In this document: positions 15,374-47,254 of the stretch, piece after piece
Layout of the letters: every line of letters starts with the position of its first letter
Numbering within the stretch: position 1 is the first letter of the stretch
Source of the DNA: Christensenellaceae bacterium Phil1
Lineage (GTDB): Bacteria; Bacillota; Clostridia; Christensenellales; CAG-138
DNA: 64,000 nucleotides
Direction of reading: 5' to 3'
NCBI GenBank assembly: GCA_001940855.1
Contig: MSGS01000009.1
Coordinates: 64,441-128,440, forward strand
The notes under the pieces: generated by a model
What the model saw: only the letters and a program-made list of their open reading frames with translations
What the model was told of the DNA's origin: nothing
Databases searched by the model: none
Translations under genes and position numbers: made by a program

Positions 15374-15387
15374 AACACTCGTTCCGT

Positions 15388-15463: not shown

Positions 15464-15492
15464 TCATTGGTTGATAAAAAGGAAACCACCTG

Positions 15493-16844: not shown

Positions 16845-16878
16845 ATAGGTGAAAAGAAAACAGATCGGAGGAACTGTT

Positions 16879-17247: not shown

Positions 17248-17272
17248 TTCTCTTTCCGGAATGTAGTATAAT
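17244..17272 (+). promoter_or_regulatory. Putative promoter P2 (TTGATT-17-TATAAT), a twin of P1
   Basis: TTGATT lies at 17244-17249 and TATAAT at 17267-17272. The extended region AGTATAATATAGG is the same as in P1. Confidence 0.5.
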
Positions 17273-17312
17273 ATAGGCGTAAAGAGAACAAGAACATAAG
17301 GAGGGCATCAAG

Positions 17313-17477
17313 ATGTTCGGATTTAAGAAGAAAAAGAGAATGGTCAAGCAGATCCCCGTCAGCGAATATGAGTACCACATTATGTTGGATGCTCTCTTGA
17401 AGCTGAGAGACAAGCTCATTGCCGAGGGACGGTACACAGACGGAGTGGACGAAACCATCTTGGCAGTTTGCAGATAA
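17313..17477 (+). CDS. Small hypothetical protein (54 aa, MFGFKKKKRMVKQIPVSEYEYHIMLDALLKLRDKLIAEGRY...)
   Basis: Not in the ORF track because it is under 60 aa. The ATG is preceded by AAGGAGG and the gene is followed by a strong terminator. Confidence 0.5.
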   Translation: MFGFKKKKRMVKQIPVSEYEYHIMLDALLKLRDKLIAEGRYTDGVDETILAVCR

Positions 17478-17496
17478 ATGAACTGAATACCATAAT

Positions 17497-17531
17497 GGAC
17501 ACCGAAACAAAAAGCGGTGTCCTTTTCTTTT
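17497..17531 (+). terminator. Rho-independent terminator
   Basis: GGACACCG-loop-CGGTGTCC followed by TTTTCTTTTT. Confidence 0.75.
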
Positions 17532-17535
17532 TCGG

Positions 17536-17667
17536 GCAGTCTTGTTGCAGTCTTGAAAAGGTCATTAACACAATATATTGATGTAGATAAACGAAAGAAA
17601 TACAAGATAAAGCGTTTGCAGACTTAAATCCCTCCCCATATTGCAGTCTTGCATTTTTGCAGTCTTG
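17536..17667 (+). promoter_or_regulatory. Five copies of (TT)GCAGTCTTG upstream of the pilin genes (candidate operator array)
   Basis: GCAGTCTTG occurs at 17536, TTGCAGTCTTG at 17545, TTGCAGACTTA at 17616, and TTGCAGTCTTG at 17641 and 17657. Confidence 0.6.
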
Positions 17668-17675
17668 CCTTACAT

Positions 17676-17727
17676 AGCCGCCGAAGCGACATTTTTTGGA
17701 ATGAAACTTCGACGGCTTTTTCTATTT
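17676..17727 (+). terminator. Terminator/attenuator-like hairpin in the leader of the pilin operon
   Basis: AGCCGCCGAAG pairs with CTTCGACGGCT in 10 of 11 positions, with a 20-nt loop, followed by TTTTCTATTTT. It lies about 30 nt upstream of the first pilin start. Confidence 0.45.
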
Positions 17728-17757
17728 TCGGGAGGTGGTTGCCTTTGGTTGTATTGA

Positions 17758-17970
17758 ATGACTCAGAGAAAGGAGGATAGCAACACGAAGCTCATCAAAA
17801 AAGAAAGCAAGTCGTTATTGAATGGCAGAAAGGCAGAAGGATATATCGACACGGCAATAAAACTGATTATTGGCGTAGTTGTAGGTTCGCTTCTTCTTGC
17901 CGGATTGTATGCCATTATCAACAACACCGTGTTACCCGGGCTTGCGGACAGGATTCAATCCATGTTCTAA
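17758..17970 (+). CDS. Flp-like short prepilin, divergent paralog 1 (70 aa)
   Basis: From the ORF track. The sequence is ...GRKA-EGYIDTAIKLIIGVVVGSLLLAGLYAII.... It shares the EGYID plus hydrophobic-helix motif with the next three genes. The SD for this start is weak, so the start is uncertain. Confidence 0.6.
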   Translation: MTQRKEDSNTKLIKKESKSLLNGRKAEGYIDTAIKLIIGVVVGSLLLAGLYAIINNTVLPGLADRIQSMF

Positions 17971-18067
17971 ACGGGATACACAAGATTCATCGTGTAATGG
18001 CGGTGCGATGAACTTGATCGGAAACGCCAAAAACAAATATTCTAATTATCGAAAGGAAAAAAACAAA

Positions 18068-18298
18068 ATGAAGAAGTTTATCAACAAGATTACCGGCAAG
18101 GCAAACGAGCTTGCCATCCGTGCAAAGACTGCCCTCACCGCAAAGGAAGGTGAAGGCTATATCGACACTGCCGTCAAGATCATCATCGGCGTGGTAGTCG
18201 GCGGCGTCATCCTCGCAGGACTTTACGCACTCTTTAAGAATGTCGTTCTTGTCAATCTGAACGACCAGATCGGCGATATGTTCAGCTACACCGCCTAA
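18068..18298 (+). CDS. Flp-like short prepilin, paralog 2 (76 aa)
   Basis: Start at MKKFINKITGKANELAIRAKTALTAKEG-EGYIDTAVKIIIGVVVGGVILAGLYALF. It has a basic leader, the motif, a single hydrophobic helix and a short tail. Confidence 0.75.
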   Translation: MKKFINKITGKANELAIRAKTALTAKEGEGYIDTAVKIIIGVVVGGVILAGLYALFKNVVLVNLNDQIGDMFSYTA

Positions 18299-18347
18299 TC
18301 AGTAACCAACAACACACATTTTTTGAATTAAGAAAGGAACTATCAGA

Positions 18348-18578
18348 ATGAAGAAATTTATCAACAAGATCAACAACAAGGCAAATGAACTTGCCATCCG
18401 TGCAAAGACCGCCCTCACCGCAAGGGAAGGCGAAGGCTATATCGACACTGCCGTCAAGATCATCATCGGCGTTGTGGTCGGTGGTGTTATCCTTGTCGGT
18501 CTGTATGCTCTCTTTAAGAATGTCGTTCTTGTCAACCTGAACGACCAGATCGGCGATATGTTCAGCTACACCGCCTAA
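18348..18578 (+). CDS. Flp-like short prepilin, paralog 3 (76 aa)
   Basis: From the ORF track. It is near-identical to paralog 2 at both protein and DNA level. Confidence 0.75.
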   Translation: MKKFINKINNKANELAIRAKTALTAREGEGYIDTAVKIIIGVVVGGVILVGLYALFKNVVLVNLNDQIGDMFSYTA

Positions 18579-18628
18579 TCAGTAACCAACAACACACATT
18601 TTTTTGAATTATGAAAGGAATTATCGAA

Positions 18629-18859
18629 ATGAAGAAGATTATGAACAAGATCACCGGCAAGGCAAACGAGCTTGCCATCCGTGCAAAGACTGCCCTCACC
18701 GCAAAGGAAGGCGAAGGCTATATCGACACTGCCGTCAAAATCATTATCGGCGTAGTAGTCGGCGGCGTTATCCTCGTCGGTTTGTATGCACTCTTTGATA
18801 ATGTTGTTCTCCCCAAGCTGAACACCGAGATCACGGATATGTTCAACTACTCTGCTTAA
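18629..18859 (+). CDS. Flp-like short prepilin, paralog 4 (76 aa)
   Basis: Start at MKKIMNKITGK. It has the same leader and motif as paralogs 2 and 3, with a divergent C-terminal 25 aa. Confidence 0.75.
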   Translation: MKKIMNKITGKANELAIRAKTALTAKEGEGYIDTAVKIIIGVVVGGVILVGLYALFDNVVLPKLNTEITDMFNYSA

Positions 18860-18873
18860 TCCGGTAAGAAAGC

Positions 18874-19473
18874 ATGATGATTACAACGCATAATTTCATC
18901 GTGCTTTCACTTATTGTATGTGCTACTCTCGGCGTAACCTATCTGCTTACCCGTGTCATGCAGGGGAAAGGGTACAAGGTTAATACCTTACTGAATATCC
19001 TTTTGATGCTTGCGATCTCTACGGTTCTCGTATTGGTCGGAAGCTCTTTTTCATGGATTCTCAAGGGGATTGCCTTTGCCTTGATCCTGCTTTATGCGTC
19101 TTGCGAGGACTATTCCAAAAGAGAGGCAGACGATTTCCTGTGGGTGATGATCCTCCTTCTTTGCATTTGTAATGCCAGCAGTTTAAGCCTTTGGTCAATG
19201 CTCGGCGGTGTGTTTGTCACATTTGTGCCGACATTCGCCATTGCCATTCTCGGTCGTGTTGGAGGAATCGGAGGTGCAGATATCAAGATAGCAGGTGCGT
19301 GTGGGCTGATGCTCGGCTTCATGGGTGGTTCCATCGGTTATGCGGTGGGACTGCTCAGCGCCGTGCTATTCAATATCATATACAATAAAGTGAAGCATCG
19401 TAAAAACAGTAAGTCATTCCCGATGCTGCCGTTCCTCTCGATTGGCTTTATGCTCGGGTACTTTATTTTCTAA
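18874..19473 (+). CDS. A24-family prepilin peptidase (TadV/CpaA-like)
   Basis: From the ORF track. It is a polytopic membrane protein with CEDYSKRE and GGIGGADIKIAGACGLMLG, the two-Asp motifs of A24 peptidases. Confidence 0.85.
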   Translation: MMITTHNFIVLSLIVCATLGVTYLLTRVMQGKGYKVNTLLNILLMLAISTVLVLVGSSFSWILKGIAFALILLYASCEDYSKREADDFLWVMILLLCICNASSLSLWSMLGGVFVTFVPTFAIAILGRVGGIGGADIKIAGACGLMLGFMGGSIGYAVGLLSAVLFNIIYNKVKHRKNSKSFPMLPFLSIGFMLGYFIF

Positions 19474-19493
19474 CCAATAGGAGGATTTGAACA

Positions 19494-20237
19494 TTGAAAA
19501 AAATGAAAATCAATAACAGAACGGTCATCGGTGTAATTTGTATCGTTCTGGCTTTGGTGGTGACATTCGGTGTGTCACCCCTTGTAAACAGACTCTCCGA
19601 CCTGAAAACCGATGTGGTCAGAGTCAAGAACCCCATTGAAAGAGGTCAGCTTATCACAGCCAACGACCTTGAAATCGCAAAGGTTGGTTCATATAACCTT
19701 CCCGAAGGAGTTATCAAGGACGGAACCACCGTTGTCGGCAAGTATGCCACTACCAACATGAGTAAGGGAGATTACCTTTTTGCTGAGAAGCTGACAGGGG
19801 AGAGTAACAGCCCTGAAGATATTCTTGCTTCACTTGATGGCTCAAAGGTGGTCATTTCCGTGTCTATCGGCTCATATGCCGAAGGCCTTTCCAATAAGCT
19901 CCAGAACGGGGACATCATCTCCATTATCATCTACAATAAGGATGAATACCGTTCATATATCCCGGCAGAGCTGAAATATGTTCGTGTTATTACCACTACA
20001 ACAGATGATGGCATTGATCAGGATGAAAACAGGGAAGGCGGTAAGGCAACTACTGTAACGCTTCTTGTAACACCCGAACAGGCAGAAATGCTTTCTGAGT
20101 ATCAGAGCGTTACTTCGATGCACTTCATCCTCGTTTACCGTGGAGACAAGGCAACAGCAGATAAGTTCATTAAGGCACAGGACGATTATCTCAAAGCCGC
20201 ACCTGCCAAGACAACGGAGGCGAGCGATAATGAGTAA
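19494..20237 (+). CDS. CpaB/RcpC-like Flp pilus assembly protein (SAF domain)
   Basis: From the ORF track, with a TTG start 9 nt after AGGAGG. It has an N-terminal TM segment. VVRVKNPIERGQLITANDLE is a SAF-like start. Confidence 0.75.
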   Translation: MKKMKINNRTVIGVICIVLALVVTFGVSPLVNRLSDLKTDVVRVKNPIERGQLITANDLEIAKVGSYNLPEGVIKDGTTVVGKYATTNMSKGDYLFAEKLTGESNSPEDILASLDGSKVVISVSIGSYAEGLSNKLQNGDIISIIIYNKDEYRSYIPAELKYVRVITTTTDDGIDQDENREGGKATTVTLLVTPEQAEMLSEYQSVTSMHFILVYRGDKATADKFIKAQDDYLKAAPAKTTEASDNE

Positions 20238-20982
20238 AGTAATAGCAGTATGGGGAACGCCGGGAAGCGGAAAGACCACTTTTGCGGCGAAGCTCGCTTC
20301 TTCTCTCAATATGGGAGGAAAGGGCAAGTCGATCCATTCCGCTATTGCTGTCTTTCCCGATTTTACGGCACCTGTTGTTCCGACAATCTTTCCAAACAAA
20401 AAGAGTGATGAGCTGTTCTCGCTTGGTTCGGTTCTGCAAAAGCCCGACCTGACAAAGAACCTCATCGTCTCTAATACCATCTTCATCAAGGACAGAACGA
20501 ACCTCGGTTTTCTCGGGTATACGGCAGGAGAGAACCGCTTTTCTTATGCCGAGTACACAAGGGACAAGGCAGATGCTTTTCTCGACTGTATTACGGGTGT
20601 GTCCGAATATGTGGTTGTAGATTGTTCCTCAAATCCCGAGGATAACATGCTCACAATGGCTACTCTTGAAAGGGCAGATATAGCGATCAGACTTCTGTCA
20701 CCTGATCTCAAAGGGCTGAGTTATCATCTGTCGCAGACACCTATCTATATCCGCTTCGGATATATGAAGGATGACTGTATTCAGGCAATCAATGTAACAA
20801 CACCCGAGTATCAGTATTCGGCGGCAGATATGAAGGGACATTTCGGAAAGGTCGAATATATCGTGCCTTACAGTCAAACATTGAAGGAACAGTATATGCA
20901 GGGAACACTCACCGAAACAACGAAGGATAAGAAGTACACTTCTGCCGTGGAAGCTATCCGTGAAAGGGTGGTGAAGGTATGA
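20230..20982 (+). CDS. TadZ/CpaE-like ParA/MinD-superfamily ATPase
   Basis: ATG 20230 overlaps the cpaB-like stop. MSKVIAVWGTPGSGKTTFAAKLA is a P-loop. The position between CpaB and TadA matches Tad loci. Confidence 0.7.
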   Translation: MSKVIAVWGTPGSGKTTFAAKLASSLNMGGKGKSIHSAIAVFPDFTAPVVPTIFPNKKSDELFSLGSVLQKPDLTKNLIVSNTIFIKDRTNLGFLGYTAGENRFSYAEYTRDKADAFLDCITGVSEYVVVDCSSNPEDNMLTMATLERADIAIRLLSPDLKGLSYHLSQTPIYIRFGYMKDDCIQAINVTTPEYQYSAADMKGHFGKVEYIVPYSQTLKEQYMQGTLTETTKDKKYTSAVEAIRERVVKV

Positions 20983-22292
20983 GAATCGAAATGTACGACC
21001 TTCTTTGTAAGGCACAGGAAACCATTGCAAGACAGTATCCGGCAATTCTTACGGATAAGTCCAAGCGTGGGGAAATGAAGAACTACCTTGCACAATATCT
21101 GTATAACACGGGATATACCGTAGACGGATATACCATGCAACAGACGGTGGACAGGCTATTTGAGGAAATGGCGGATTACTCAATCCTTACGAAGTATCTT
21201 GCAGATTCCAATATCGAGGAAATCAATATCAACGGTTGGGATGATGTGGCTTTGACCTATCTTGACGGGCGTATTGAGAAATCAAAGGAACACTTCTTCT
21301 CTCCCGGTCACGCAACGGATATTATAAAGAAGCTGCTTCAACATTCGGGAATGATCATTGACAACTCCATGCCGATGGCACAGGGACACTTGCCCGGCAA
21401 TACCCGTATTACCGTTCTGAAATCACCCATTGTTGATGATGAAAGAGGCATTGCGGCTTCTATCCGTATGCTTCATCCGCAGAGAGTGGACAGAGAGAAC
21501 CTTTTGAACACCGATTCCATTACAGACGAAATGCTGAGATTCTTGGAAATGTGTCTCCGATATGGCGTGTCCTTTGTTGTTGCAGGCAGAACAAGCTCGG
21601 GTAAGACAACCTTGCTCAATAGCTTGCTCGGCTCTGTTCCCGATAACAAGCGTATTTATACCATTGAATCGGGTGCAAGAGAGTTGGCACTTGTGAAAAG
21701 GGACACAAACGGAGCTGTGATAAACAATGTTGTTCATACACTTTCCCGTCCTTCCGAGAAAGACCAATCCAATGTGACACAAGAGGACTTGGTGATAGCG
21801 TCCTTGCGTTTTGATCCCGATGTGATATGCGTCGGAGAAATGCGAGATAGTGAAGCGGCATCGGCAATAGAGGCAAGCTCCACAGACCACACAGTCGTGA
21901 CTACCGTACACGGTGCTGGAGGAAAGTATGCTCACCAAAGAATAGCTTTTCTTGCCTTGAAGGGTATGAAAAGTAACGATATCCACATCGCCTTGCAACA
22001 GGCGGCACTTGCTTTTCCCGTGGTTGTGTTCGCACACAAGCTGGAGAACAATACCCGTAAGGTAATGGATATCTCGGAATGTATCGTAGAGGATAACGGC
22101 GAGCTTTCGTACAGAGTGCTTTATCGGTATAAGATCAAGAGCAACACTTATCGCAACGGTGAATTTTTCATTGACGGCGAGTTTGTGAAGGAGAATAATC
22201 TCTCGGATAATCTGAAAGAAAAACTGCTCCGTGGCGGTGTGCCGAATCCGTTGCTTGAACAATTCTTAGGGAAGGAGATGATGACGGCATGA
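20979..22292 (+). CDS. TadA/CpaF-type secretion ATPase (T2SS/T4P/T4SS ATPase family)
   Basis: From the ORF track. Walker A is AGRTSSGKTTLLNSL, Walker B is DPDVICVGEMRD, and the His box is VVTTVHG. There is a 4-nt start/stop overlap with both neighbouring genes. Confidence 0.9.
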   Translation: MRIEMYDLLCKAQETIARQYPAILTDKSKRGEMKNYLAQYLYNTGYTVDGYTMQQTVDRLFEEMADYSILTKYLADSNIEEININGWDDVALTYLDGRIEKSKEHFFSPGHATDIIKKLLQHSGMIIDNSMPMAQGHLPGNTRITVLKSPIVDDERGIAASIRMLHPQRVDRENLLNTDSITDEMLRFLEMCLRYGVSFVVAGRTSSGKTTLLNSLLGSVPDNKRIYTIESGARELALVKRDTNGAVINNVVHTLSRPSEKDQSNVTQEDLVIASLRFDPDVICVGEMRDSEAASAIEASSTDHTVVTTVHGAGGKYAHQRIAFLALKGMKSNDIHIALQQAALAFPVVVFAHKLENNTRKVMDISECIVEDNGELSYRVLYRYKIKSNTYRNGEFFIDGEFVKENNLSDNLKEKLLRGGVPNPLLEQFLGKEMMTA

Positions 22293-23215
22293 TTATCATA
22301 CAACTTGTAGCGTTCTTTTTGCTGACAATCGGCATTGTATGGACACTTGGATTGACACCCGAACAGATCAATAACGACCTTTCGGGATTATTCGATAAAC
22401 AGCAGTCCTTACAGGATATGTCCAAAGCGGCAAGAGGAAAAAAGAAACAGAGCAAGATCATCACGAACTTGCTTAAAACCCGCAGAGTATTGAAAGAGAC
22501 GGGAAAAGAGAAATCCTTTTCGGTGGCACTTGCGTTATCCATGCTCCTTATGGTTATTGGATGTGTCATTGCCATTGTACTGGATAATATCTTCCTCGCT
22601 CCCGTGCTCGGTATCTTCTTTGCATTATTGCCTTTTCTGTACCTCATGCGAAGCGTGAATATCTACAATAAGCACGTGCGTGAGGACATGGAGATGTCGC
22701 TGTCCCTTATCACTACGGCATATATCGACTGCGATAACATCAAAATGGCAATCGGTCATTATGTTGAAGAACTTCGACCTTCTATGCAGGGTATCTTCCG
22801 AGAATTTCTCGGTGAGGTTGACAATATATCCCCCAATATGGAAGAAGCTATCTACCACATGAAAGCAAAGATCGACAACGGTATTTGGAGAGAATGGTGC
22901 GATCAGCTTGTAGCCTGCCAGAGCGACAGCGGACTCAAGGACACGCTCCCTGCAATCGTATCAAAACTCCGTGATGAAAGACTTGTAAACTCGGAACTCA
23001 GAACAGCACTCTCTGAGGTGCGACGTGAGTATTACTTCATGGTAGCCTTTGTTGTGGGTAACATCCCACTTCTGTATTGTATCAACCGAGACTGGTATGA
23101 TGCCCTTATGAATACCGTGTTCGGTAAGATGGTGCTTGGTATTACGGGCATCGTGATTCTCGTCACATGGCTTCGTATGAGTAAGCAGACAAAGCCGATT
23201 GAGTATAAAGGGTAA
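22289..23215 (+). CDS. TadB-like platform protein (T2SS F-domain family)
   Basis: From the ORF track. Its membrane topology and position after the ATPase fit this call. Confidence 0.75.
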   Translation: MIIIQLVAFFLLTIGIVWTLGLTPEQINNDLSGLFDKQQSLQDMSKAARGKKKQSKIITNLLKTRRVLKETGKEKSFSVALALSMLLMVIGCVIAIVLDNIFLAPVLGIFFALLPFLYLMRSVNIYNKHVREDMEMSLSLITTAYIDCDNIKMAIGHYVEELRPSMQGIFREFLGEVDNISPNMEEAIYHMKAKIDNGIWREWCDQLVACQSDSGLKDTLPAIVSKLRDERLVNSELRTALSEVRREYYFMVAFVVGNIPLLYCINRDWYDALMNTVFGKMVLGITGIVILVTWLRMSKQTKPIEYKG

Positions 23216-23229
23216 GGAGGGAAAAGAGC

Positions 23230-24108
23230 ATGATTATAGTACAGTTATTTATCGGAATCATATTCGCCCTCGGTGCCGGAATGATTCTGTGTGACATTTT
23301 CAAGATACCAACCTTGAAGGTCAGCCGAGCAACACACAACCTCGGCAAGAAGGGGGACAAGAAGGTCAGCCCCGTAAAACTTTTCCTCGACGGATTTGCA
23401 GAGGAATTTGCACAGAAGATCAAGCTGAACGAATGGAAGAAGAAAGAACTGGAGAAGGATCTGCTTTCCGCAGGACTTGGGGATGTAACGCCCGAGCAGT
23501 TCACAGCAAGAGCCATGACAAAAGCGTTTGCTGTGGGTATCTTTGCCATTCCCGCATTTTTTGTTTTCAAGGTTCTCGGTATTCTTTTCATCGGACTTGC
23601 GTTTTTCGTTTACTTCATGGAAACAAGGAGCATTACAAGCAAGATCAAGAAGAAAAGAGCCAAGATCGAAGCCGAGCTTCCGAGATTTGTGGGAACGGTA
23701 AATAATAAGCTAACCCACACAAGAGATGTGATCGAGATTCTGACCGCATACAAGGAAACGGCAGGCGAAGAGTTCAAAGAAGAACTGACCATTACCGTTG
23801 CGGAAATGAACATCGGTGCCAATAAGACCGAAGCTCTCACCCACCTTGAAGAAAGAGTTGGATCATCACTCTTGAGTGAAGTAACACTAAAGCTCAAAGC
23901 GGTGATTGAGGGTAACTACTCAGAGGCAAGCTGGACGATGCTTGCATCTACCTTCGCACAGCTTCAAAAGGACAACCTGAAAAAGCAAGCGAATACCATT
24001 CCACGAAAGTGCAGAAAGAACTCGATTGCGTTGCTTATCTGCTTTATCCTTATCTATGTGGTCGTTCTCGGTCAGGTGCTTATAAGCTCCCTCGGCGGCA
24101 TTTTCTAA
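23230..24108 (+). CDS. TadC-like platform protein (T2SS F-domain family)
   Basis: From the ORF track. It is a second polytopic protein with a cytoplasmic helical domain. AAGGAGGG lies upstream. Confidence 0.75.
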   Translation: MIIVQLFIGIIFALGAGMILCDIFKIPTLKVSRATHNLGKKGDKKVSPVKLFLDGFAEEFAQKIKLNEWKKKELEKDLLSAGLGDVTPEQFTARAMTKAFAVGIFAIPAFFVFKVLGILFIGLAFFVYFMETRSITSKIKKKRAKIEAELPRFVGTVNNKLTHTRDVIEILTAYKETAGEEFKEELTITVAEMNIGANKTEALTHLEERVGSSLLSEVTLKLKAVIEGNYSEASWTMLASTFAQLQKDNLKKQANTIPRKCRKNSIALLICFILIYVVVLGQVLISSLGGIF

Positions 24109-24120
24109 GGAGGGATGCGT

Positions 24121-24531
24121 ATGAGAAAAGTATTATGCAACAAGCGTGGAGAAGGGTATATTGATATTGCGGTGGCGGTTCTCGTCATCGTTTTTCTTTT
24201 GATCTTCTCAGTCAGCATCTTCTCAAAGATCGCCGTCAAGCAGGACATTGACTATATGTGCCGTGAGCTTGTGGAAACCGCAACCACCACAGGCAGGATC
24301 GGTCCTGAGTTCGACGCACGGTATGAGGAATTGTGTGATGAGATCGGCTTCCGTCCCACACTCAGCTATTCGGCAACCTACTTCAGTGCATCCGCAAAGA
24401 AGGTTCAGCTCGGCGATGTGATTACCGTCAAGCTGACATACCATACAAGTCTGTTTGGCTTCGGCGGTACGGTATTCCCATTCGATGTGAGTGTTATGGA
24501 ATCGGGGCTGTCGAGAGTTTATTGGAAGTAA
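24121..24531 (+). CDS. TadE-like pseudopilin / minor pilin (DUF4320-like)
   Basis: MRKVLCNKRG-EGYIDIAVAVLVIVFLLIF carries the same G-EGYID motif as the pilins. ATG 24121 lies 6 nt after AAGGAGGG. The ORF track start is 24115. Confidence 0.65.
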   Translation: MRKVLCNKRGEGYIDIAVAVLVIVFLLIFSVSIFSKIAVKQDIDYMCRELVETATTTGRIGPEFDARYEELCDEIGFRPTLSYSATYFSASAKKVQLGDVITVKLTYHTSLFGFGGTVFPFDVSVMESGLSRVYWK

Positions 24532-24540
24532 GGTGAGAGC

Positions 24541-24996
24541 GTGAAAAAGAATAGAGTCAAAGCTGTTCTTACGAATAAGGACGGCTTTTCATATATCCTC
24601 GTTTGCGTTATCATTCTTGTTTCCATGATGGTCATTTCCGTCTTGATGCAGTATGCCCATGTCTATCACACAGCAAGAGTGCATGAGGATGATATGCAAC
24701 TGCGGCTGGACAGCTATGTGACAAAGGAAGCCATTGAGAATTACGATGCTTTCAAACAGGGCGAACCGTACTGGAAATATATCAATGAGATTGATCTGAT
24801 CGGCGGTGCGAGAGGCGTTATCAGCGGAACGCCCGGAAGAAAAACAGGATTGACCGTAACACCTATCAAGGGAAAAAGCGTCGGTGTGTGTGTCAGTTAC
24901 ACATTGACGGTTCCCTTTGAACTATGGGGAAGAAAGGTTGCGGATATTGAGATCCCCATAGAGATTATTTCAAAACTGACAGAAAGGAACGGATAA
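24541..24996 (+). CDS. Second pseudopilin-like protein (TadF-like?)
   Basis: From the ORF track, with a GTG start. It has a short basic leader, KDG-FSYILVCVIILVSMMVISVL, then a globular part. Confidence 0.5.
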   Translation: MKKNRVKAVLTNKDGFSYILVCVIILVSMMVISVLMQYAHVYHTARVHEDDMQLRLDSYVTKEAIENYDAFKQGEPYWKYINEIDLIGGARGVISGTPGRKTGLTVTPIKGKSVGVCVSYTLTVPFELWGRKVADIEIPIEIISKLTERNG

Positions 24997-25335
24997 ATGA
25001 GTAAAAAGAACCTTATCACCACGATTGTGTGTATTGCGGTTGCAGTGCTTATGATCGTGGTAATCGTTGTTTCTGTTATTAAGGGCAGGGAAAAGAACCC
25101 CGAATTGCCTCCCGATACCACAATAACAGAGACAGAAAACACAACAGAACCTGAAGATACGGATATTCCGATCATCCCCATTCCACCGGACACGGATGAG
25201 GACACAGGCAAACAGGGTGAGGTTTATATTGATGTGATAAAGGAAAACGAAAAGCACACAAGACCTACAGAGCCAACGATTGAGGGTGAGCCGTATGTCG
25301 GGGATGATGTAAAGGAGGACGGAAATGCGGAGTAA
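24997..25335 (+). CDS. Small membrane-anchored acidic Pro/Thr/Glu-rich protein
   Basis: From the ORF track. The TM segment is LITTIVCIAVAVLMIVVIVVSVI, followed by PPDTTITETENTTEPEDTD.... It overlaps the next gene by 11 nt. Confidence 0.5.
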   Translation: MSKKNLITTIVCIAVAVLMIVVIVVSVIKGREKNPELPPDTTITETENTTEPEDTDIPIIPIPPDTDEDTGKQGEVYIDVIKENEKHTRPTEPTIEGEPYVGDDVKEDGNAE

Positions 25336-28300
25336 GATTAAGATCATTTCGCTGTTATTGGTTGTCGTAACGCTTGTGTCAATGCTGGCTTTGCCTGCAT
25401 CGGCAGAGTATTCCTATCCGATGGCAATTTCAATCTATTACAAGAATGAAGCAGGTCAGCAAGTAGCTCCCACATTATCGGCATCAGTTAATGCGTCAAG
25501 CTCCACGAAACCTTCTTGGAGTTCACCGACAGTATCCGGATATGTTTTGAAAAATGATGGAGATGCGGTTGTCACTTATGGTATGCTAAAGCTTAGCTTT
25601 CCTGCATCACATTATGTAAGAAACGGTTCGGGTACCTATACTGTATACTACACAGATCAAGGAACCGTGAATGTCAATTATATCTATGGTTCCAGTATGA
25701 GAACTGCGGCGGCACAAAAACAGTTAATGGGGAAAATAGGAAGCTCATATTATATTTATTCTCCGACTGTAACCGGCTACACACCGACATCCACAAGTAT
25801 CTCCGGCACGTATAATTCAAAGTCTACCACAAAAAATGTGTACTATTATGAAAAAAGCTATACGATTTCATTTAACGCAAACGGTGGTAGCGGTGCACCT
25901 CCTGCACAAACAAAAATGCACTTCACAGACTTTACTTTCCCATCTACGATTCCCACAAGAACAGGTTACTCATTTCTTGGCTGGGCAAATCTGTCCAACG
26001 CAACAAAGGCAGATTATTCCCCAGGTCAAAAGTACTCGGTAAACTGTTCTTCAACCATGTACGCTGTATGGCAAGCAAACACCTATACGGTATCTTTTAA
26101 TGCAAACGGCGGTAGTGGTGCACCAAGCAGTCAGACCAAGACCTATGGTAAGAATCTGACACTTTCAAGCACAAAACCGACACGAAGCGGATATACCTTT
26201 GCAGGGTGGTCAACTTCATCAACGGGTTCTGTTTCGTATCAGCCCGGTGGCACTTACTCGTCCAATTCAAGTGCAACACTTTATGCCGTATGGACGAAGA
26301 ATGCCGCAACTTACACGGTTTCGTATAATGCTAATGGCGGTAGCGGAGCACCTTCTTCGCAAACCAAAACGGAGAATGTAACACTGAAGCTTTCGACTAC
26401 GAAGCCTACCCGAAGCGGATATACCTTCCTTGGTTGGAATACAAGCAGTACGGCAACTTATGCGACCTACTCTGCCGGTGGTAATTACACTTCAAACAGC
26501 AGTGTAACCTTGTATGCGGTATGGCAGAAGAATCCTTCAACCTATACCGTTTCGTATAACGCTAACGGTGGTAGTGGTGCTCCGAGCAGTCAGACAAAGA
26601 CAGAGGATGTGGTACTGACACTATCAAGTACAACACCGTATCGAAGCGGATATACCTTTCAGGGATGGGGTACAAGCAGTTCATCCTCTTATGTGTCCTA
26701 TTCTCCCGGTGATAGGTATTATTCAAACAGTAGTGTGACACTTTATGCCGTATGGAGCAAAGACACACAGTATTACTATGTCTACTACAATGCCAATGGC
26801 GGTTCGGGTGCACCTTCCTATCAGACAAAAACCGAGAATGTGGCTTTGACTCTTTCGTCTACTAAGCCTACCCGAAGTGGATATACCTTCCTTGGTTGGT
26901 CAACGAGTTCGACTGCTTCCTATGCATCATACTCTGCGGGCAGTAAGTATACGACAAATGCGTCTGCTACACTTTATGCGGTATGGGAAAGGAACTTTGA
27001 AACTTATACGGTGTCCTACAACGCCAACGGCGGTAGCGGTGCTCCGAGCAGTCAAACAAAAGTGGAAGGCACGAACCTGACACTTTCAAGTACCGTGCCG
27101 ACAAGAAGCAAATACAGCTTTGTCGGTTGGGGTACTTCATCCACTTCGACATCTCCTTCGTATTATCCCGGAAGCACCTATTCGACAGACTCGGGAATCA
27201 CTCTCTATGCCATCTGGAGCAGAGTGTACGATTCCTACACCGTATCGTATAACGCCAACGGCGGTAGTAACGCACCTGCGTCACAGACAAAGATTGAGGG
27301 AACAACCTTAACTTTGTCGAGTCAGATCCCCGGCAGACTTGGGTATACCTTCCTCGGTTGGAGTACAAGCAGTACGGCAACCTCTCCCACCTATTATGTG
27401 GGCGGTAGCTATACAGCAAACAGCGGTGCAACACTCTATGCCGTGTGGTCAAGAGATGTTTATACCATTTCGTATAATGCAAACGGTGGTACGGGCGCTC
27501 CCACAAGCCAGAGCAAGTATTACGATCAGGCAATCAGTATTACAACGGCAACTCCTGCAAGGGACAGCTATAAGTTCCTCGGTTGGGCAGAAACGGCTTC
27601 CGCTACTATACCAACCTACTACGCAGGGGACACCTATGATGCCAACAAATCCACAACGCTTTATGCGGTATGGCAAGAGGTTAACTATGATTTCTCGGTC
27701 AGCAACCTAACTGCGGCACCGAGCGAGGTTTCACAGTATGATACTGTTTCAGTGGCATTCCGTATTGACAGTTGGGACAGATATAACCCTTATACGAATA
27801 TCCCCGTTGCAGTGCTGATGAACGGAAAAACCGTTTACTCTACTACTGTGAACATTGCGGCATACGGCGTGAAGAACATCAGCTTCAACCTCAATGTGGG
27901 TGCATCCGAGGGAACACAGCGGCTTGAAGCAAGAGTGAACTGGGCAGACCACAATAATGAAACAAGAACAGGCAACAATACCGTATCAACTACCTTTGAG
28001 GTTATCAAGGTAATTGAAACATCGGTAGATGCCGCAACCACAAACGGTGAGTATGTGGAAGGTCAGGAGGTTATCACGAGCTTTTATGTGAGAAACGATA
28101 ACAACCGAGATATTCTTCCCACAGACAATCTGACCTTCGACTTCAAGGTGTATACTGTCGGAAACGGCGGTAATGAGGTTGCAGTTGTCAATCAGACAAA
28201 GACAGGTATTGTTATCCCTGCCAACGGAACGAACCTTGTGTACTTCAAGTGGAAAGTCCCCGAAGGAAGTGCCGGAACACCCTATTGGTGCAGAGGCAGT

Positions 28301-28981
28301 ATTACACCGAGCAGAGGTGAGGCGAATACAAGCAATAATGCCACAGAGTTTGCCATCGTCTCGGCTCCCAAGTATGTTTCACAGACCGAGAACACAAGAT
28401 ATGAGGACAAGGCTCCTGCAAGCTACAATGCAAGCGTATCCGCACCTACCGACAAAGCCGGAAGTGCCACATGGAATGAGTGGACTTATGAAAACGGTGC
28501 GTTTGTTTTGAAAACCTACGGTATTACCGTGTCAAGCGATAATCCCGTGATTACACCGAGTTCGGGTTGTACGACCGCAGAGAAGTACGGCACATCTTGG
28601 AAAATGAAATCGGGTTACGGTATTGCATTGTCTTGGAATCCTACCATCCGCAGTTATTCGGGCTATTCTATGCCCACAAGTGATGCCTATACGGGTGTTC
28701 AGACAGCCTATGCAACATTCCCCGAGTTCTCATACAATGTGGCTTACGGCAAGTACAGAACACTTGAATATGCAGGTGGCAAGTATCAGTTTGAAGTCAA
28801 TACCGATGCAGACAAGAACGAGAGAGTCCACTTTATCCCCGTATATGTCAAGGACGGAAGCTATACCGTTTCCGTGACAGCGGGTGGTATTTGGACACCT
28901 GCCGGACTGGTTACGGCAACGAGAAGTGCGAATACGGTTGTTATTAACGGTACGATCTATTCGGACTGGTATCAGGGATGA
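25325..28981 (+). CDS. Large secreted repeat protein (1218 aa): signal peptide, 8 Listeria-Bacteroides (Flg_new-type) repeats, two CARDB-like domains and a C-terminal domain; no LPXTG or TM anchor
   Basis: From the ORF track. The signal peptide is LLLVVVTLVSMLALPASA. The repeat core is YTVSYNANGGSGAPSSQTK...LSSTKPTRSGYTFLGW...TLYAVW, present 8 times. The CARDB-like endings are ...ETRTGNNTVSTTFEV and ...EANTSNNATEFAI. AAGGAGG lies 7 nt upstream. Confidence 0.85.
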   Translation: MRSKIKIISLLLVVVTLVSMLALPASAEYSYPMAISIYYKNEAGQQVAPTLSASVNASSSTKPSWSSPTVSGYVLKNDGDAVVTYGMLKLSFPASHYVRNGSGTYTVYYTDQGTVNVNYIYGSSMRTAAAQKQLMGKIGSSYYIYSPTVTGYTPTSTSISGTYNSKSTTKNVYYYEKSYTISFNANGGSGAPPAQTKMHFTDFTFPSTIPTRTGYSFLGWANLSNATKADYSPGQKYSVNCSSTMYAVWQANTYTVSFNANGGSGAPSSQTKTYGKNLTLSSTKPTRSGYTFAGWSTSSTGSVSYQPGGTYSSNSSATLYAVWTKNAATYTVSYNANGGSGAPSSQTKTENVTLKLSTTKPTRSGYTFLGWNTSSTATYATYSAGGNYTSNSSVTLYAVWQKNPSTYTVSYNANGGSGAPSSQTKTEDVVLTLSSTTPYRSGYTFQGWGTSSSSSYVSYSPGDRYYSNSSVTLYAVWSKDTQYYYVYYNANGGSGAPSYQTKTENVALTLSSTKPTRSGYTFLGWSTSSTASYASYSAGSKYTTNASATLYAVWERNFETYTVSYNANGGSGAPSSQTKVEGTNLTLSSTVPTRSKYSFVGWGTSSTSTSPSYYPGSTYSTDSGITLYAIWSRVYDSYTVSYNANGGSNAPASQTKIEGTTLTLSSQIPGRLGYTFLGWSTSSTATSPTYYVGGSYTANSGATLYAVWSRDVYTISYNANGGTGAPTSQSKYYDQAISITTATPARDSYKFLGWAETASATIPTYYAGDTYDANKSTTLYAVWQEVNYDFSVSNLTAAPSEVSQYDTVSVAFRIDSWDRYNPYTNIPVAVLMNGKTVYSTTVNIAAYGVKNISFNLNVGASEGTQRLEARVNWADHNNETRTGNNTVSTTFEVIKVIETSVDAATTNGEYVEGQEVITSFYVRNDNNRDILPTDNLTFDFKVYTVGNGGNEVAVVNQTKTGIVIPANGTNLVYFKWKVPEGSAGTPYWCRGSITPSRGEANTSNNATEFAIVSAPKYVSQTENTRYEDKAPASYNASVSAPTDKAGSATWNEWTYENGAFVLKTYGITVSSDNPVITPSSGCTTAEKYGTSWKMKSGYGIALSWNPTIRSYSGYSMPTSDAYTGVQTAYATFPEFSYNVAYGKYRTLEYAGGKYQFEVNTDADKNERVHFIPVYVKDGSYTVSVTAGGIWTPAGLVTATRSANTVVINGTIYSDWYQG
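25859..27680 (+). repeat. Eight tandem ~228-nt coding repeats inside the adhesin-like gene
   Basis: The AATGC.AA.GG.GGTAG.GG.GC.CC blocks (NANGGSGAP) and TATGC.GTATGG blocks (YAVW) recur periodically. Confidence 0.8.
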
Positions 28982-28988
28982 GGTGCCT

Positions 28989-29300
28989 ATGAGAGATTAC
29001 GACGAATACGATGAGTATGAGAACGAACCAGAAGAACAGAAGGAAGTCATTGAAGGGTACACCGTTCAGGCTTCCTTATGGATTAACGGAAAAAGGCTGA
29101 TTTACGCAAAGGATGAAACGGGGGAAAAGGATATGCCGTATATGAAGGTCATTCAAGTTCCAGATCCTTTATTCGGTCACTACGAAAACGGCATTATCTC
29201 TGACAGCTATACCGAGATCATGAAGCAGTTTGCCGATGATATTAAGGCTGAGGCAATGAACAGCATATTAAAAGTGAAATATTCTTCGAATGTGAAATAA
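28989..29300 (+). CDS. Hypothetical protein (103 aa) with an acidic N-terminus (MRDYDEYDEYENEPEEQKE...)
   Basis: ATG 28989 follows GAGGTG. It is the last gene of the island operon. Its last codons overlap the first two GTGAAAT repeats. Confidence 0.5.
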   Translation: MRDYDEYDEYENEPEEQKEVIEGYTVQASLWINGKRLIYAKDETGEKDMPYMKVIQVPDPLFGHYENGIISDSYTEIMKQFADDIKAEAMNSILKVKYSSNVK

Positions 29301-29444
29301 TGCCCTACCGGGCATTGTGAAATTTGATGTTTCCCATCAAGTGAAATGAAATAAAACCCCACGCGCCGCAGCGCATTTCACATGGCGAAGCCATATTTCA
29401 CATGCTTCAGCATATTTCACAAATCCGCAAGGATTTATTTCACA
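29274..29444. repeat. 4+4 inverted array of the heptamer GTGAAAT / ATTTCAC, with short variable hairpins in the spacers
   Basis: GTGAAAT occurs at 29274, 29292, 29317 and 29341. ATTTCAC occurs at 29375, 29395, 29414 and 29437. Spacing is 18-25 bp. TGGCGA lies at 29383-29388. Confidence 0.85.
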
Positions 29445-29445
29445 G

Positions 29446-29473: not shown

Positions 29474-29547
29474 TGGAGCGGGTAAAGGGACTCGAACCCT
29501 CTATCTCAGCTTGGAAGGCTAATGTGTTACCATTACACTATACCCGC
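29474..29547 (-). tRNA. tRNA-Gly (anticodon TCC)
   Basis: The reverse complement is GCGGGTATAGTGTAATGGTAACACATTAGCCTTCCAAGCTGAGATAGAGGGTTCGAGTCCCTTTACCCGCTCCA. The anticodon loop is CTTCCAA. Confidence 0.9.
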
Positions 29548-29562
29548 ATGATATTCTGTTTT

Positions 29563-29648
<86 letters not shown>

Positions 29649-29671
29649 AATTTGCGCCGCAAATGCAAAAA

Positions 29672-29747
29672 TGGTGACCCGTCGGAGATTCGAACTCCGG
29701 ACACCTTGATTAAAAGTCAAGTGCTCTACCGACTGAGCTAACGGGTC
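29672..29747 (-). tRNA. tRNA-Lys (anticodon TTT)
   Basis: The reverse complement is GACCCGTTAGCTCAGTCGGTAGAGCACTTGACTTTTAATCAAGGTGTCCGGAGTTCGAATCTCCGACGGGTCACCA. Confidence 0.92.
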
Positions 29748-29752
29748 ATACT

Positions 29753-29828
29753 TGGCTGGGGTGGCAGGATTCGAACCTGCGTATACCGGAATCAAAATCC
29801 GGGGCCTTAGCCGCTTGGCGACACCCCA
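29753..29828 (-). tRNA. tRNA-Gln (anticodon TTG)
   Basis: The reverse complement is TGGGGTGTCGCCAAGCGGCTAAGGCCCCGGATTTTGATTCCGG...GGTTCGAATCCTGCCACCCCAGCCA. Confidence 0.9.
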
Positions 29829-29860
29829 ATCCTGCGCAAAAAGCGCCTTGGGGAAGTAAA

Positions 29861-29938
29861 TGGGGTGGGTAGTGGGACTCGAACCCACGACCTCCAGAGC
29901 CACAATCTGGCATTCTAACCAACTGAACTATACCCACC
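29861..29938 (-). tRNA. tRNA-His (anticodon GTG) with an encoded G-1
   Basis: The reverse complement is GGTGGGTATAGTTCAGTTGGTTAGAATGCCAGATTGTGGCTCTGGAGGTCGTGGGTTCGAGTCCCACTACCCACCCCA. Confidence 0.9.
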
Positions 29939-29945
29939 ATATACT

Positions 29946-30022
29946 TGGCGCGCCCGCAGGGATTCGAACCCTGGACCTACGGCTTAGAAGGCCGTTGCTC
30001 TATCCAGCTGAGCTACAGGCGC
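29946..30022 (-). tRNA. tRNA-Arg (anticodon TCT)
   Basis: The reverse complement is GCGCCTGTAGCTCAGCTGGATAGAGCAACGGCCTTCTAAGCCGTAGGTCCAGGGTTCGAATCCCTGCGGGCGCGCCA. Confidence 0.92.
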
Positions 30023-30170: not shown

Positions 30171-31124
30171 TCAATCGCTTATATTTACGTCCAGCCCAAA
30201 CTCCTCCGGCAAAAATCTCGGGCACACGTTTTCGGATGTGCAAATAACGCTCGCTGCAAGGCGCGTGCCTATTTCGCAGGCTTCCGCTATGTTCTTCCCG
30301 TATGTAAGCCCTATTACCGTGCCGGAGAAGAAAGCATCGCCCGCGCCGGTAGTATCCTTAACGTCAACATGCTTCGCCGGGCAAACGCCGCTTTCGCCAT
30401 CCGTCGTGGCGTATACAGCGCCCTGCTCGCCCATCGTTACCACCATGCGCGGTATCTGCGCCGCCTTTATGCGGCGGGATAGTATATCCGCCATTTCAGC
30501 CGGAGTCTTATCATCGTAATCGTCGCTGAAAAGAATGCCCGCCTCCTGCTGATTGCATACGAAGCACTGCGTGGAGCGCAAAAAGTCGCGCCGTTCAAAC
30601 GCTATGCGCATATTGGACACAACGGCGTAAACGGGCTTATTATGCTTTTCCGCCAGGGCGAAAACCAGCTTAACGATATCCTTATCTATATCTATTTCAA
30701 TTGCTATACTGTCCGCCTTTTCAAATATTTCATCGCCATGCTGCGCCAATATGTCGTATATCGGGTGCAGATCGGGCCGTTTTGATATTGCCGCCACCAC
30801 GTCGCCGTTGTTGCCGAAAACGGCCAGCCATGTGCCCATTCCGTCCGGCGTAACGCGTATGTAATCCGTGTTCACCTTGTGCGCATTCAGCTTTTTTATA
30901 ACGTCCGCGCCAACGCCCGTGTCGTCCACAAGGCTTATAAACGTCGGTCTCAGTTCAACGTTTGCAATGTCCTCGGCTATGTTTCGGCTCACGCCGCCAT
31001 GCACCTGCTCCACCCTGCCCGCGTTCCTGCCGCCGGGAATATACACCTCCGACGGGTAGCCCTTTATATCAACGAATATTGCGCCTATAACAACAATGCC
31101 CAATCCTATTCCCTCCGTATTCAC
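30171..31124 (-). CDS. PfkB-family carbohydrate/nucleoside kinase
   Basis: From the ORF track. IVVIGAIFVDIKGYP, GGVSRNIAEDIA and the C-terminal DTTGAGDAFFSG motif are present. Confidence 0.85.
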   Translation of the reverse strand: MNTEGIGLGIVVIGAIFVDIKGYPSEVYIPGGRNAGRVEQVHGGVSRNIAEDIANVELRPTFISLVDDTGVGADVIKKLNAHKVNTDYIRVTPDGMGTWLAVFGNNGDVVAAISKRPDLHPIYDILAQHGDEIFEKADSIAIEIDIDKDIVKLVFALAEKHNKPVYAVVSNMRIAFERRDFLRSTQCFVCNQQEAGILFSDDYDDKTPAEMADILSRRIKAAQIPRMVVTMGEQGAVYATTDGESGVCPAKHVDVKDTTGAGDAFFSGTVIGLTYGKNIAEACEIGTRLAASVICTSENVCPRFLPEEFGLDVNISD

Positions 31125-47250: not shown

Positions 47251-47254
47251 ACAA

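Follow-up and report, generated by a model that had tools for sequence, protein, structure and literature searches.

We analyzed a 64,000-nucleotide stretch of contig MSGS01000009.1 from Christensenellaceae bacterium Phil1 (hereafter the window, meaning this whole stretch) and, within it, an array of the heptamer GTGAAAT and its complement ATTTCAC at positions 29274-29443. The array is one copy of a composite element of approximately 170-200 bp, in which two inverted modules of the orphan motif Gut-1 (Rfam RF01706) are arranged around a short centre. The hairpin structure of this element is under selection, and the family to which it belongs is a dispersed multi-copy repeat of gut and rumen Clostridia, with single and tandem modules in Akkermansia. 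In the window, the element is resident chromosomal DNA behind a tRNA operon, and the Tad/ParB region on its other side is a strain-specific replacement that abuts it by chance. The composite form, the tRNA-terminator address, the dispersal and the strand symmetry described below are absent from the literature searched.

Anatomy and genomic address of the composite element

The covariance-model scan (cmscan) matched RF01706, named 'Gut-1 RNA', at 29370-29445 on the minus strand, with a score of 71.9 bits over model positions 1-77 of 77, the gathering score of the family being 50 bits. The left half of the array also matches Gut-1, on the plus strand, with 39.7 bits (E = 1.8e-6), although this second match is below threshold and mis-registered. 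The Gut-1 consensus comprises four (G)UGAAAU boxes and three variable paired hairpins, and the right half of the array shows this layout; the same model also matches related loci, including both halves of one locus (L017) and several Akkermansia loci. Gut-1 was described in 2010 by Weinberg et al. from gut metagenomes, has no known function and was graded by its discoverers as 'certainly' an RNA, and the supplement of that paper reports that the motif occurs in human-gut sequences, with nothing further on its context (PMC2864571). No later work on Gut-1/RF01706 or on GTGAAAT hairpin repeats was found in the searchable literature beyond this 2010 paper.

The window contains 12 copies of GTGAAAT/ATTTCAC on both strands, compared with the 9.8 ± 3.0 expected from shuffled sequences, so the total count is ordinary and the clustering alone is non-random: eight of the 12 copies are packed into 171 bp (29274-29443), where about 0.03 would be expected. 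A first-pass annotation of this DNA had placed GTGAAAT at 29274, 29292, 29317 and 29341 of the plus strand and ATTTCAC at 29375, 29395, 29414 and 29437, and all eight positions were verified. Every spacer is a small perfect hairpin, and the stems listed in that annotation (AATGCCC/GGGCATT, TTGATG/CATCAA, GCGC/GCGC, ATGGC/GCCAT, ATGC/GCAT and AAATCC/GGATTT) were all found in the sequence. The Gut-1 match, an upstream terminator (P0), the asymmetry of the two halves and an 11-nt inverted repeat go beyond what had been noticed there.

To describe all loci in a common frame, we define the A-direction as the Rfam strand of the better-scoring half, which in the window is the minus strand. The A-half is the Rfam Gut-1 unit itself (29370..29445, minus strand, by the RF01706 covariance-model match), with its (G)UGAAAU boxes at 29443-29437, 29420-29414, 29401-29395 and 29381-29375 and its hairpins H1 (29421-29436), H2 (29402-29413) and H3 (29382-29394), and it runs on into a fourth hairpin, H4. 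The B-half (29274..29347, plus strand, the sub-threshold Gut-1 match) is an inverted, longer-stemmed copy, whose GTGAAAT boxes begin at 29274, 29292, 29317 and 29341 on the plus strand and are separated by H7 (29281-29291), H6 (29299-29316) and H5 (29324-29340); in the minus-strand reading, it consists of ATTTCAC boxes plus hairpins. Between the two halves lies the centre (29348..29374), composed of GAAATAAAACC (29348-29358, which forms arm s3 of a long-range stem, P1), a CCAC linker and H4 (29363-29374, GCGC-CGCA-GCGC). The other arm of P1, s1, occupies 29431..29441 with the plus-strand sequence GGATTTATTTC, and these two segments, 29348-29358 and 29431-29441, are the 11-nt inverted repeat that brackets the right half. 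Arm s1 has two possible partners: 29421-29426, with which it makes the local hairpin H1, and the centre at 29348-29358, a pairing that closes the whole A-half. The halves are asymmetric, with short stems and triloops in one and longer stems and tetraloops in the other. The inner inverted pair of boxes is 27 nt apart, and neighbouring boxes are separated by hairpins of 11-18 nt, with variable spacing.

The same architecture recurs at many other loci, denoted here by L numbers. A pattern scan of one genome per species returned many metagenome-assembled genomes (MAGs) from gut and rumen Clostridia with a '+' array and, 30-40 nt further on, a '-' array. The genome and viral scans gave 36 composites, and a composite-specific metagenome scan added 120 more loci, leading to 153 unique composites, mostly from gut and rumen Clostridia. 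Read in the A-direction, a composite begins after the upstream gene and P0 with CAAC-GAAAT (or a full GTGAAAT), followed by a segment X, a loop and its complement X'; then come three GTGAAAT boxes, each with a short hairpin (mostly triloops, with a median stem of 5 bp), a centre made of a short linker, X' and ATTTC, and finally the B-half, with four ATTTCAC boxes among longer hairpins (median stem 7 bp, mostly tetraloops). The commonest box count for A-half plus B-half is 3+4 (68 elements), followed by 3+5, 4+5 and 4+4.

The outer arm GAAAT-X can pair either with the nearby X' (H1) or with the central X'-ATTTC, in the 11-bp stem P1, and X falls into at least five covarying classes (AAATCC, CCGTCC, CCACCC, TTGCCC and TCGCC). 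Of 133 elements, 114 have P1 arms that complement each other over 9 nt or more, and H1 complementarity is present in 96 of 114. When 34 diverse elements are aligned, 98.7% of P1 is paired and 6 of its 11 positions show compensatory changes, and the H1 and P1 pairings both covary; over all tested helices, 92.7% of positions are paired, against 66% in shuffled controls and at most 50% with slid partners, and compensatory changes occur in 20 of 25 pairs. Hairpin sequences vary both inside an element and from one element to another, and constancy is confined to the linker heptamer, approximately 93% of the boxes in the composite set being exact GTGAAAT.

In the window, the tRNA operon Arg-tct, His, Gln, Lys, Leu, Gly-tcc (29474..30022, minus strand; ARAGORN and Rfam) has a promoter-like site at 30125-30097 of the minus strand (TTGACA-17-TAAAAT with TG, 11/12 matches in a promoter scan) and ends in P0 (29445-29473), which lies between the 3' end of tRNA-Gly and the element and consists of an A-run, GCAGTCC-AAA-GGACTGC and a T-run. 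P0 thus has the GC-rich hairpin and T-run of an intrinsic terminator, with an A-run that makes it bidirectional. Among the 118 composites with enough upstream sequence for the test, 50 have a co-oriented tRNA that ends 105-141 nt upstream of the centre, directly before P0, and 17 tRNA identities are represented in these 50. When all tRNAs ending within 260 nt of the centre are counted over the 153 elements, 70 of the 70 on the upstream side are co-oriented, against one tRNA on the other side. At loci without a tRNA, a GC-rich hairpin still precedes AACGAAAT, and the nearest upstream open reading frame (ORF) is co-oriented by 25:11; a hairpin stands upstream of the element in every locus inspected. 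The A-run, GC-hairpin and T-run of P0 start right after CCA, and because an identical layout closes tRNA operons that have no element, P0 appears to be an ordinary bidirectional terminator. A promoter and terminator scan missed P0 and reported H4 with the T-rich centre (29359-29376, minus strand) instead, probably because the A- and T-runs join the stem and consume the T tail.

Element polarity follows GC skew in 60 of 78 loci, and by this measure the minus strand of the window is the leading strand. Genes on the downstream side face either way (69:40), and a sigma-70-like promoter of the next gene adjoins the B-end in 18 of 114 loci. An outward promoter was considered as an intrinsic part of the element and set aside, as it is seen in those 18 of 114 loci only; likewise, a promoter-like call inside the B-half (29274-29301, 9/12 matches) is at the level found in shuffled sequence, and promoter hexamers, DnaA boxes, NusB/E boxA and primase sites are poor matches to the boxes or have the wrong spacing. 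As a separate observation, at L098:6640-6761 the terminator that follows tRNA-His is itself followed by the complement of the tRNA 3' acceptor end (TGGGGTGGGTGA), and the hairpin could extend into the tRNA.

The dispersal of the family is evident from near-identical copies in unrelated flanks. One MAG carries such copies in at least three different flanks, at contig ends, and of the 89 element pairs that reach 95% identity, 28 have different flanks on both sides and 20 on one side. The block shared between copies usually extends from the A-run of P0 to the last box, or approximately 50 nt past it. Many near-identical extragenic copies within a genome, as in repeats of the REP/BIME/REPIN type, are therefore found here too, on the basis of the one MAG and the pair comparison. 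The family is also modular: single modules occur in L002, L007, L018 and L068, tandem modules or composites in L009, L277, L338 and L339, and a convergent pair with both halves above the Rfam threshold in L017. In L036, L072 and L243, direct repeats of P0 plus element bracket one to three genes (247 nt, 96% identical, around three genes in L036; 211 nt, 98% identical, around one gene in L072; two ORFs in L243). Akkermansia MAGs carry repeats of approximately 440 nt in which a Gut-1 module is followed by a second module, alike in design but with the box CGAGATT. Searches of 72,556 plasmid records gave no element match, and those of 50,697 phage records gave one weak match (MT835590.1:14883-14980, 99 nt, 75.5% identical), in a human-faecal 'Bacteriophage sp.' genome of 27 kb that carries no annotation; composites are also present in the IMG/VR contigs L130, L185, L189 and L197.

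Related box types were seen alongside these. In the tandem repeats of approximately 440 nt at L005:2230-3620, from an Akkermansia MAG, the second box, CGAGATT, occurs four times, and in L009 and L002 a further box, CATCAT/ATATCAT, alternates with hairpins, which suggests a wider class of arrays combining a constant heptamer with variable hairpins. Taken together, the window and about 150 related loci give the orphan motif an anatomy, in which two inverted modules form a composite that is closed by a stem and preceded by a terminator, as well as a genomic address at tRNA-operon terminators with fixed polarity and a set of hosts among many Clostridia MAG lineages and Akkermansia.

Strand symmetry and candidate functions

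Pairing in the spacers shows no preference for either strand. Over 392 distinct spacer hairpins, 96% of the pairs are Watson-Crick (2062 pairs, with 32 G.U, 25 A.C and 29 others); G.U and A.C counts reveal no strand asymmetry (32 versus 25, p = 0.43), and wobble-type pairs amount to 2.7% of all. The first, smaller set had given 12 versus 5, and with the enlarged set at 32 versus 25 no strand is called. The closing pair is C-G in approximately 85% of hairpins. Loops of the form TNC on the GTGAAAT strand correspond to c-GNA-g or c-GNNA-g on the ATTTCAC strand in both halves, and loop polarity is accordingly mirror-symmetric, pointing outward from the centre. Triloops of the c-GNA-g type form unusually stable DNA mini-hairpins, such as d(GCGAAGC). 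Among the tallied tetraloops, 31 are GNRA and 35 are non-GNRA, and purines are not preferred at position 3. Under RNA as well as DNA energy parameters, hairpins are more stable on the ATTTCAC strand (154-156 versus 33-37 in the B-half and 35-37 versus 11-18 in the A-half), and on this strand 7 of 34 elements have a tandem G.A/A.G in H5.

One alternative offered in the first-pass annotation was a multi-hairpin structure in which GUGAAAU pairs with AUUUCAC, and thermodynamic folding does predict it: on either strand, the predicted fold is a rod of GUGAAAU:AUUUCAC box pairs from which the hairpins branch, with a z-score of about -9 against shuffled sequences. As the box-box pairs are invariant, covariation neither supports nor refutes this part of the fold. 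Stems restricted almost entirely to Watson-Crick pairs, the lack of strand bias and the mirror-symmetric loops are odd for an RNA made from one strand, and the strand-neutral pairing together with the mirror-symmetric polarity suggests that the structure is needed on both strands.

We tentatively favour a REP/BIME-like role for the element: as a structured barrier, it would stop transcripts from either side, shape their 3' ends and so insulate tRNA operons, and a putative host factor would read the heptamer; we regard this as quite possible, without calling it probable. Transcripts that leak through P0, or that enter from the far side (here, from the Tad operon), would copy a GUGAAAU-hairpin array first and an AUUUCAC-hairpin array afterwards, each stable hairpin of the latter being trailed by a short U-stretch, and the two sets of boxes could then zip into a branched rod. 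Because such a structure would form on both strands, it would behave in the same manner whichever side the polymerase arrives from, and it may in this way shield tRNA operons from neighbouring genes, and the near-invariant heptamer would serve as the recognition site of a conserved host factor.

Several considerations weigh against this barrier. P0 alone looks strong, with a 7-bp GC-rich stem and 5-8 T, and the need for a back-up is questionable; moreover, judged by the usual criteria, a hairpin followed by AUUUC makes a poor intrinsic terminator. A structural barrier leaves the invariance of the heptamer across phyla unexplained, as it does the two covarying partners of the outer arm (H1 and P1), which are more typical of a switching RNA. 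The existence of single and tandem modules, and of Akkermansia units with the non-complementary box CGAGATT, indicates that box-box pairing is not essential to the family. The scarcity of G.U pairs could reflect young, recently copied palindromes rather than selection on two strands. Finally, the barrier function is inferred from position and symmetry.

Other explanations account for some of these observations. The Rfam classification implies a small RNA, in which the module on the GUGAAAU strand would display four single-stranded boxes and bind or titrate a protein or another RNA; for the composite, this would mean either two convergent small RNA genes or one RNA of approximately 180 nt derived from the 3' trailer of the tRNA precursor, and in the trailer form the AUUUCAC half would mask the boxes and the H1/P1 alternative would act as a switch. 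We consider this unlikely, though it carries appreciable weight, given the Rfam match above threshold, the 'certainly' RNA grade of its discoverers (PMC2864571), the strong covariation with one arm engaged in two exclusive and equally covarying pairings, the co-orientation with the upstream tRNA or gene, the single modules of L009 and L068 trailed by terminator-like hairpins in the GUGAAAU direction, and the tandem G.A in H5 and GNRA-like B-half loops of a minus-strand transcript. Yet no promoter was seen between P0 and the module, which begins 0-4 nt past the T-run of a strong terminator; G.U is no commoner than A.C (unlike in typical one-strand RNAs), the hairpins are systematically less stable on the annotated strand, the tallied tetraloops lack the purine preference at position 3, and many near-identical copies per genome together with tandem arrays would be unusual for a small RNA gene. 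These data cast doubt on Gut-1 as an RNA transcribed from the annotated strand. Rather unlikely, too, is a selfish non-autonomous mobile repeat (MITE-, PATE- or REPIN-like), whose heptamer arrays would be subterminal sites for a transposase acting in trans, whose hairpins would form in single-stranded DNA of the lagging-strand template, and whose insertion would be aimed at terminator T-runs, a preference that could account for position and polarity without benefit to the host. Its ends resemble terminal inverted repeats (CAACGAAAT or YAGTGAAAT against ATTTCAC-T(TG)), near-identical copies lie in unrelated flanks and assemblies break at the element, tandem and partial copies exist, stems are Watson-Crick only with c-GNA-g triloops, polarity tracks GC skew (60 of the 78 loci), and the element begins right after a T-run. 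Against it, the junctions inspected show no target-site duplication, and no transposase family recurs near the 147 composite loci whose neighbours were clustered; where the flanks of a pair differ, P0 mostly lies within the shared unit, which argues that P0 is not simply the insertion target; the hairpins within one element all differ, unlike those of REP or IS200/IS605 ends, whose hairpin sequence is what the transposase recognises; and five strains have stably retained the element at their tRNA-Gly locus.

A recombination site is improbable in our judgement. The boxes would bind an Xer-like or integron-like tyrosine recombinase, and the element would be a docking place for cassettes or islands beside tRNA operons. 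The direct repeats of P0 plus element that bracket small gene sets in L036, L072 and L243 are in line with this, as are strain-variable DNA starting 19 nt from the B-end in this species, the gene for a 279-aa tyrosine recombinase right after the B-end in L080, and a one-base difference between GTGAAAT and both the integron core GTTRRRY and the GTTAAAT in the XerD arm of dif. However, a nearby second copy accompanies only about 6 of the 153 elements, three of them plain tandem arrays without cassettes; recombinases are not enriched, the recurrent family besides L080 being a large serine recombinase, of which the one in L244 belongs to a different mobile element inside tRNA-Asn; the Tad region of the window is not bounded by any repeat of the element or the junction; a 12-nt repeat seen in L080 is no more than chance would give; and long direct repeats can come from ordinary homologous recombination between dispersed copies. 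Arm-type sites of an integrase or an iteron array, which the first-pass annotation had named as an alternative, gain no consistent support, since recombinase genes near the element are only sporadic, and neither an integrase among the annotated Tad-region ORFs nor an attL/attR-like split was observed. Integron attC and the attP of CTX phage work through single strands that fold so as to restore duplex sites, and by analogy the composite may be a folded single-stranded docking site, in which the boxes would re-pair into duplex half-sites for an Xer-like tyrosine recombinase. The DNA-type loops, the Watson-Crick stems, the bracketed cassettes of L036, L072 and L243, the variable DNA at the B-end and a recurrent 23S_rRNA_IVP cassette fit this proposal, which we nevertheless hold to be decidedly improbable. 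If true, it would reveal an integron-like platform by which Clostridia capture cassettes or islands beside tRNA operons; to our knowledge, integrons are reported absent in this phylum. For a hitherto vague orphan motif, the options are now testable ones: a barrier to transcripts from both sides, an RNA derived from a tRNA trailer, a mobile repeat or a site of recombination.

The Tad/ParB region and neighbouring genes

Four sister contigs from metagenomes (L281, L314, L323 and L324) carry tRNA-Gly, P0 and the element at 98-99% identity and lack the Tad/ParB region. Their similarity to the window stops at 29254/29255, the junction with the Tad region, and their own flank, which is not found elsewhere in the window, has the usual arrangement of a promoter-like sequence and a 23S_rRNA_IVP gene. 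Blastn and alignment of this junction with the four sisters also define a conserved outer flank of the B-half, AATGAACAGCATATTAAAA, at 29255..29273. Since the sisters keep tRNA-Gly, P0 and the element beside a different flank, it is the Tad region that is strain-specific. The first-pass annotation had located the array at the end of a genomic island; strain-variable DNA does begin there, with a breakpoint at 29254/29255 that lies 19 nt beyond the last box, but it is to the tRNA side that the element belongs. It had also seen that the first two boxes overlap the final codons of the last Tad-region ORF (28989..29300, plus strand, 103 aa, no Pfam match; stop 29298-29300), which is correct: because of the position of the junction, this ORF reads its last 15 codons and its stop from conserved element DNA, and it is not part of the element. 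In the window, the element is intact, and no further repeat of it or of the Tad junction was found elsewhere.

The Tad/ParB region (window positions of about 12000-29254) starts near tRNA-Asn (15388-15463). It has a GC content of 45-47% with opposite skew, compared with 51-53% in its surroundings, and, given this composition and its absence beside the element in the four sisters, it looks horizontally acquired. No integrase was found among the Tad-region ORFs that were annotated, which are not all of its ORFs, and no direct repeat of the att type bounds the region in the window. Pfam domains identify a Tad/Flp-type pilus operon with an A24 peptidase, RcpC/CpaB, a T2SSE ATPase, DUF4320 and a 1218-aa protein with Flg_new repeats. 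Upstream of the prepilin peptidase, at 17897-18859 of the plus strand, are three tandem paralogous small ORFs (core of about 76-82 aa, MKKFINKI...TALTAKEGEGYIDTAVKIIIGVVVGG...), which look like Flp-type pilin paralogues of the Tad locus.

The protein encoded at 15736-16665 does carry ParB_N and HTH_ParB domains, and its gene lies in the same variable region whose far end adjoins the array, which had led to the proposal that the array is a centromere or CTP-clamp loading site for this protein; the heptamer, moreover, resembles what we take to be half of a chromosomal parS site. The evidence from related loci leaves this proposal hardly credible. A tblastn search with the ParB-like protein and all Tad-region proteins of the window found no homologue in 63 other Gut-1-type loci, no ParB family emerged from an unbiased clustering of neighbouring ORFs (147 composite loci, 1083 ORFs), and the four sister strains keep the element without the ParB/Tad region. 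The palindromic parS of about 16 bp, formed by abutting half-sites, is absent, and in its place there are isolated 7-bp boxes at irregular spacing with covarying hairpins between them; the family is a chromosomal multi-copy repeat at tRNA terminators, with no match among the plasmid records. A partition site like parS of phage P1 was likewise tried and rejected. TGGCGA, claimed as the complement of the P1 box B, is present at 29383-29388, but it is one arm and part of the loop of ATGGC-GAA-GCCAT (H3), whose sequence varies among loci and differs in nearly every other element, so that a conserved box B is missing. For the annotation of the window, the array is neither a partition site nor part of the Tad/ParB region.

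Neighbouring genes did not reveal a dedicated partner protein: two all-versus-all clusterings of the ORFs around the 147 loci (1083 ORFs) gave generic families, and several of these 'families' are artefact ORFs that read through the boxes. The sole specific recurrent neighbour is 23S_rRNA_IVP (PF05635, an Avd-like four-helix bundle), present at 17 of 147 loci; in 12 of 147, its gene, with its own promoter, is the first co-oriented gene after the B-end, which makes it the commonest in that position (examples are L323:271-615 and L010:4811-5170, as well as L044, L029, L064 and L066). On the other side of the tRNA operon, a PfkB-family kinase gene (30171-31124, minus strand) marks the limit of synteny with relatives of about 85% identity (L362-L366), which ends at its stop codon; no orthologous tRNA locus could be reached through PfkB in these relatives, and the lineage of the window has its own arrangement of the tRNA cluster, the element and what lies beyond.

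Fragments of tRNA 3' ends precede P0 in L064, L314, L244, L325 and L189, and the possibility that the element is part of an integrating element was examined on this account and rejected. The duplicated tRNA 3' ends of L064 and L314 and the serine recombinase of L244 show instead that other mobile elements entered the tRNA, after which P0 and the element remained on the displaced host side. At L314:5311-5470, an insert of about 160 nt with its own terminator lies inside the 3' end of tRNA-Gly, with a 20-nt direct repeat (TGGAGCGGGTAAAGGGACTC), and looks like the remnant of a tRNA-targeting integrative element or a miniature one; tRNA-Gln in L064 has a similar insert pattern. In L244, a large serine recombinase gene (6454-8193) adjoins the 3' half of a tRNA-Asn (about 5947-6100, from the anticodon loop) that is fused to unrelated DNA, which indicates a mobile element integrated in the anticodon loop region of tRNA-Asn. 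L325 and L189, the latter an IMG/VR viral contig, have the same type of tRNA-Asn arrangement. Unrelated to the array, a full-length T-box leader (RF00230, 119.2 bits) is located at 47254-47471 of the plus strand and presumably regulates the downstream gene.

Comparison with known systems

The partition sites parS and P1 parS share with the element a heptamer that resembles the parS half-site or the P1 box A in 6 of 7 positions, and nothing more. A palindromic full site, a conserved box B, an IHF site and a conserved ParB partner are missing here, and, unlike parS sites, which are origin-proximal or plasmid-borne, the element is a dispersed chromosomal repeat.

With integron attC sites and pdif modules, the element has in common imperfect inverted repeats, a folding of single-stranded DNA that rebuilds short boxes, a variable centre and a position flanking cassettes; the heptamer also matches what we take to be the attC core consensus, GTTRRRY, in 6 of 7 positions. 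It differs in having four boxes per side rather than two and a cassette-like layout in three loci only, and no IntI-like gene is present among the neighbouring ORFs clustered from the 147 loci. The BOX repeats of Streptococcus pneumoniae and bcr1 of Bacillus cereus are comparable as modular, strongly folding intergenic repeats of Firmicutes with a variable number of modules. Mobility has been suspected for both, and effects on the expression of neighbouring genes have been reported. There is no sequence relation to either, BOX modules are conserved sequences of 45-59 nt as opposed to a heptamer with hairpins of free sequence, and we know of no reported association of BOX or bcr1 with tRNA terminators.

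REP, BIME and REPIN sequences, known from Enterobacteria and Pseudomonas, are likewise short, structured, extragenic multi-copy repeats at the 3' ends of transcription units. They are mosaics in which palindromic units alternate in orientation, as doublets, singlets or tandem arrays, and their proposed actions concern both transcripts, through 3'-end stabilisation and termination, and DNA. Within one genome, REP hairpins share a conserved sequence that a RAYT transposase recognises, and a GTAG tetranucleotide stands next to the hairpin. In the element, by contrast, the hairpins all differ and the 7-nt linker alone is constant, and siting at tRNA terminators is not a REP feature; no Y1 (RAYT) transposase occurs among the recurrent neighbours of the 147 composites, whole genomes not having been searched for one.

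The closest relative remains Gut-1 as published. The right half of the array matches it over its full length and above threshold, with the same layout of boxes and hairpins and in the same gut type of bacteria. In that publication, the motif comprises one unit of 77 nt, classed as a non-coding RNA and placed in the 'human gut only' (PMC2864571). In the window, by contrast, the unit makes up one half of an inverted composite that stem P1 closes and that a terminator precedes; it is multi-copy and sited at the ends of tRNA operons, its pairs have no strand bias, and its hairpins are stabler opposite the annotated strand. Its range is also wider, extending over MAGs of Oscillospiraceae, Acutalibacteraceae, Christensenellaceae, Ruminococcus and Akkermansia, and over the rumen, other animal guts and viral contigs.

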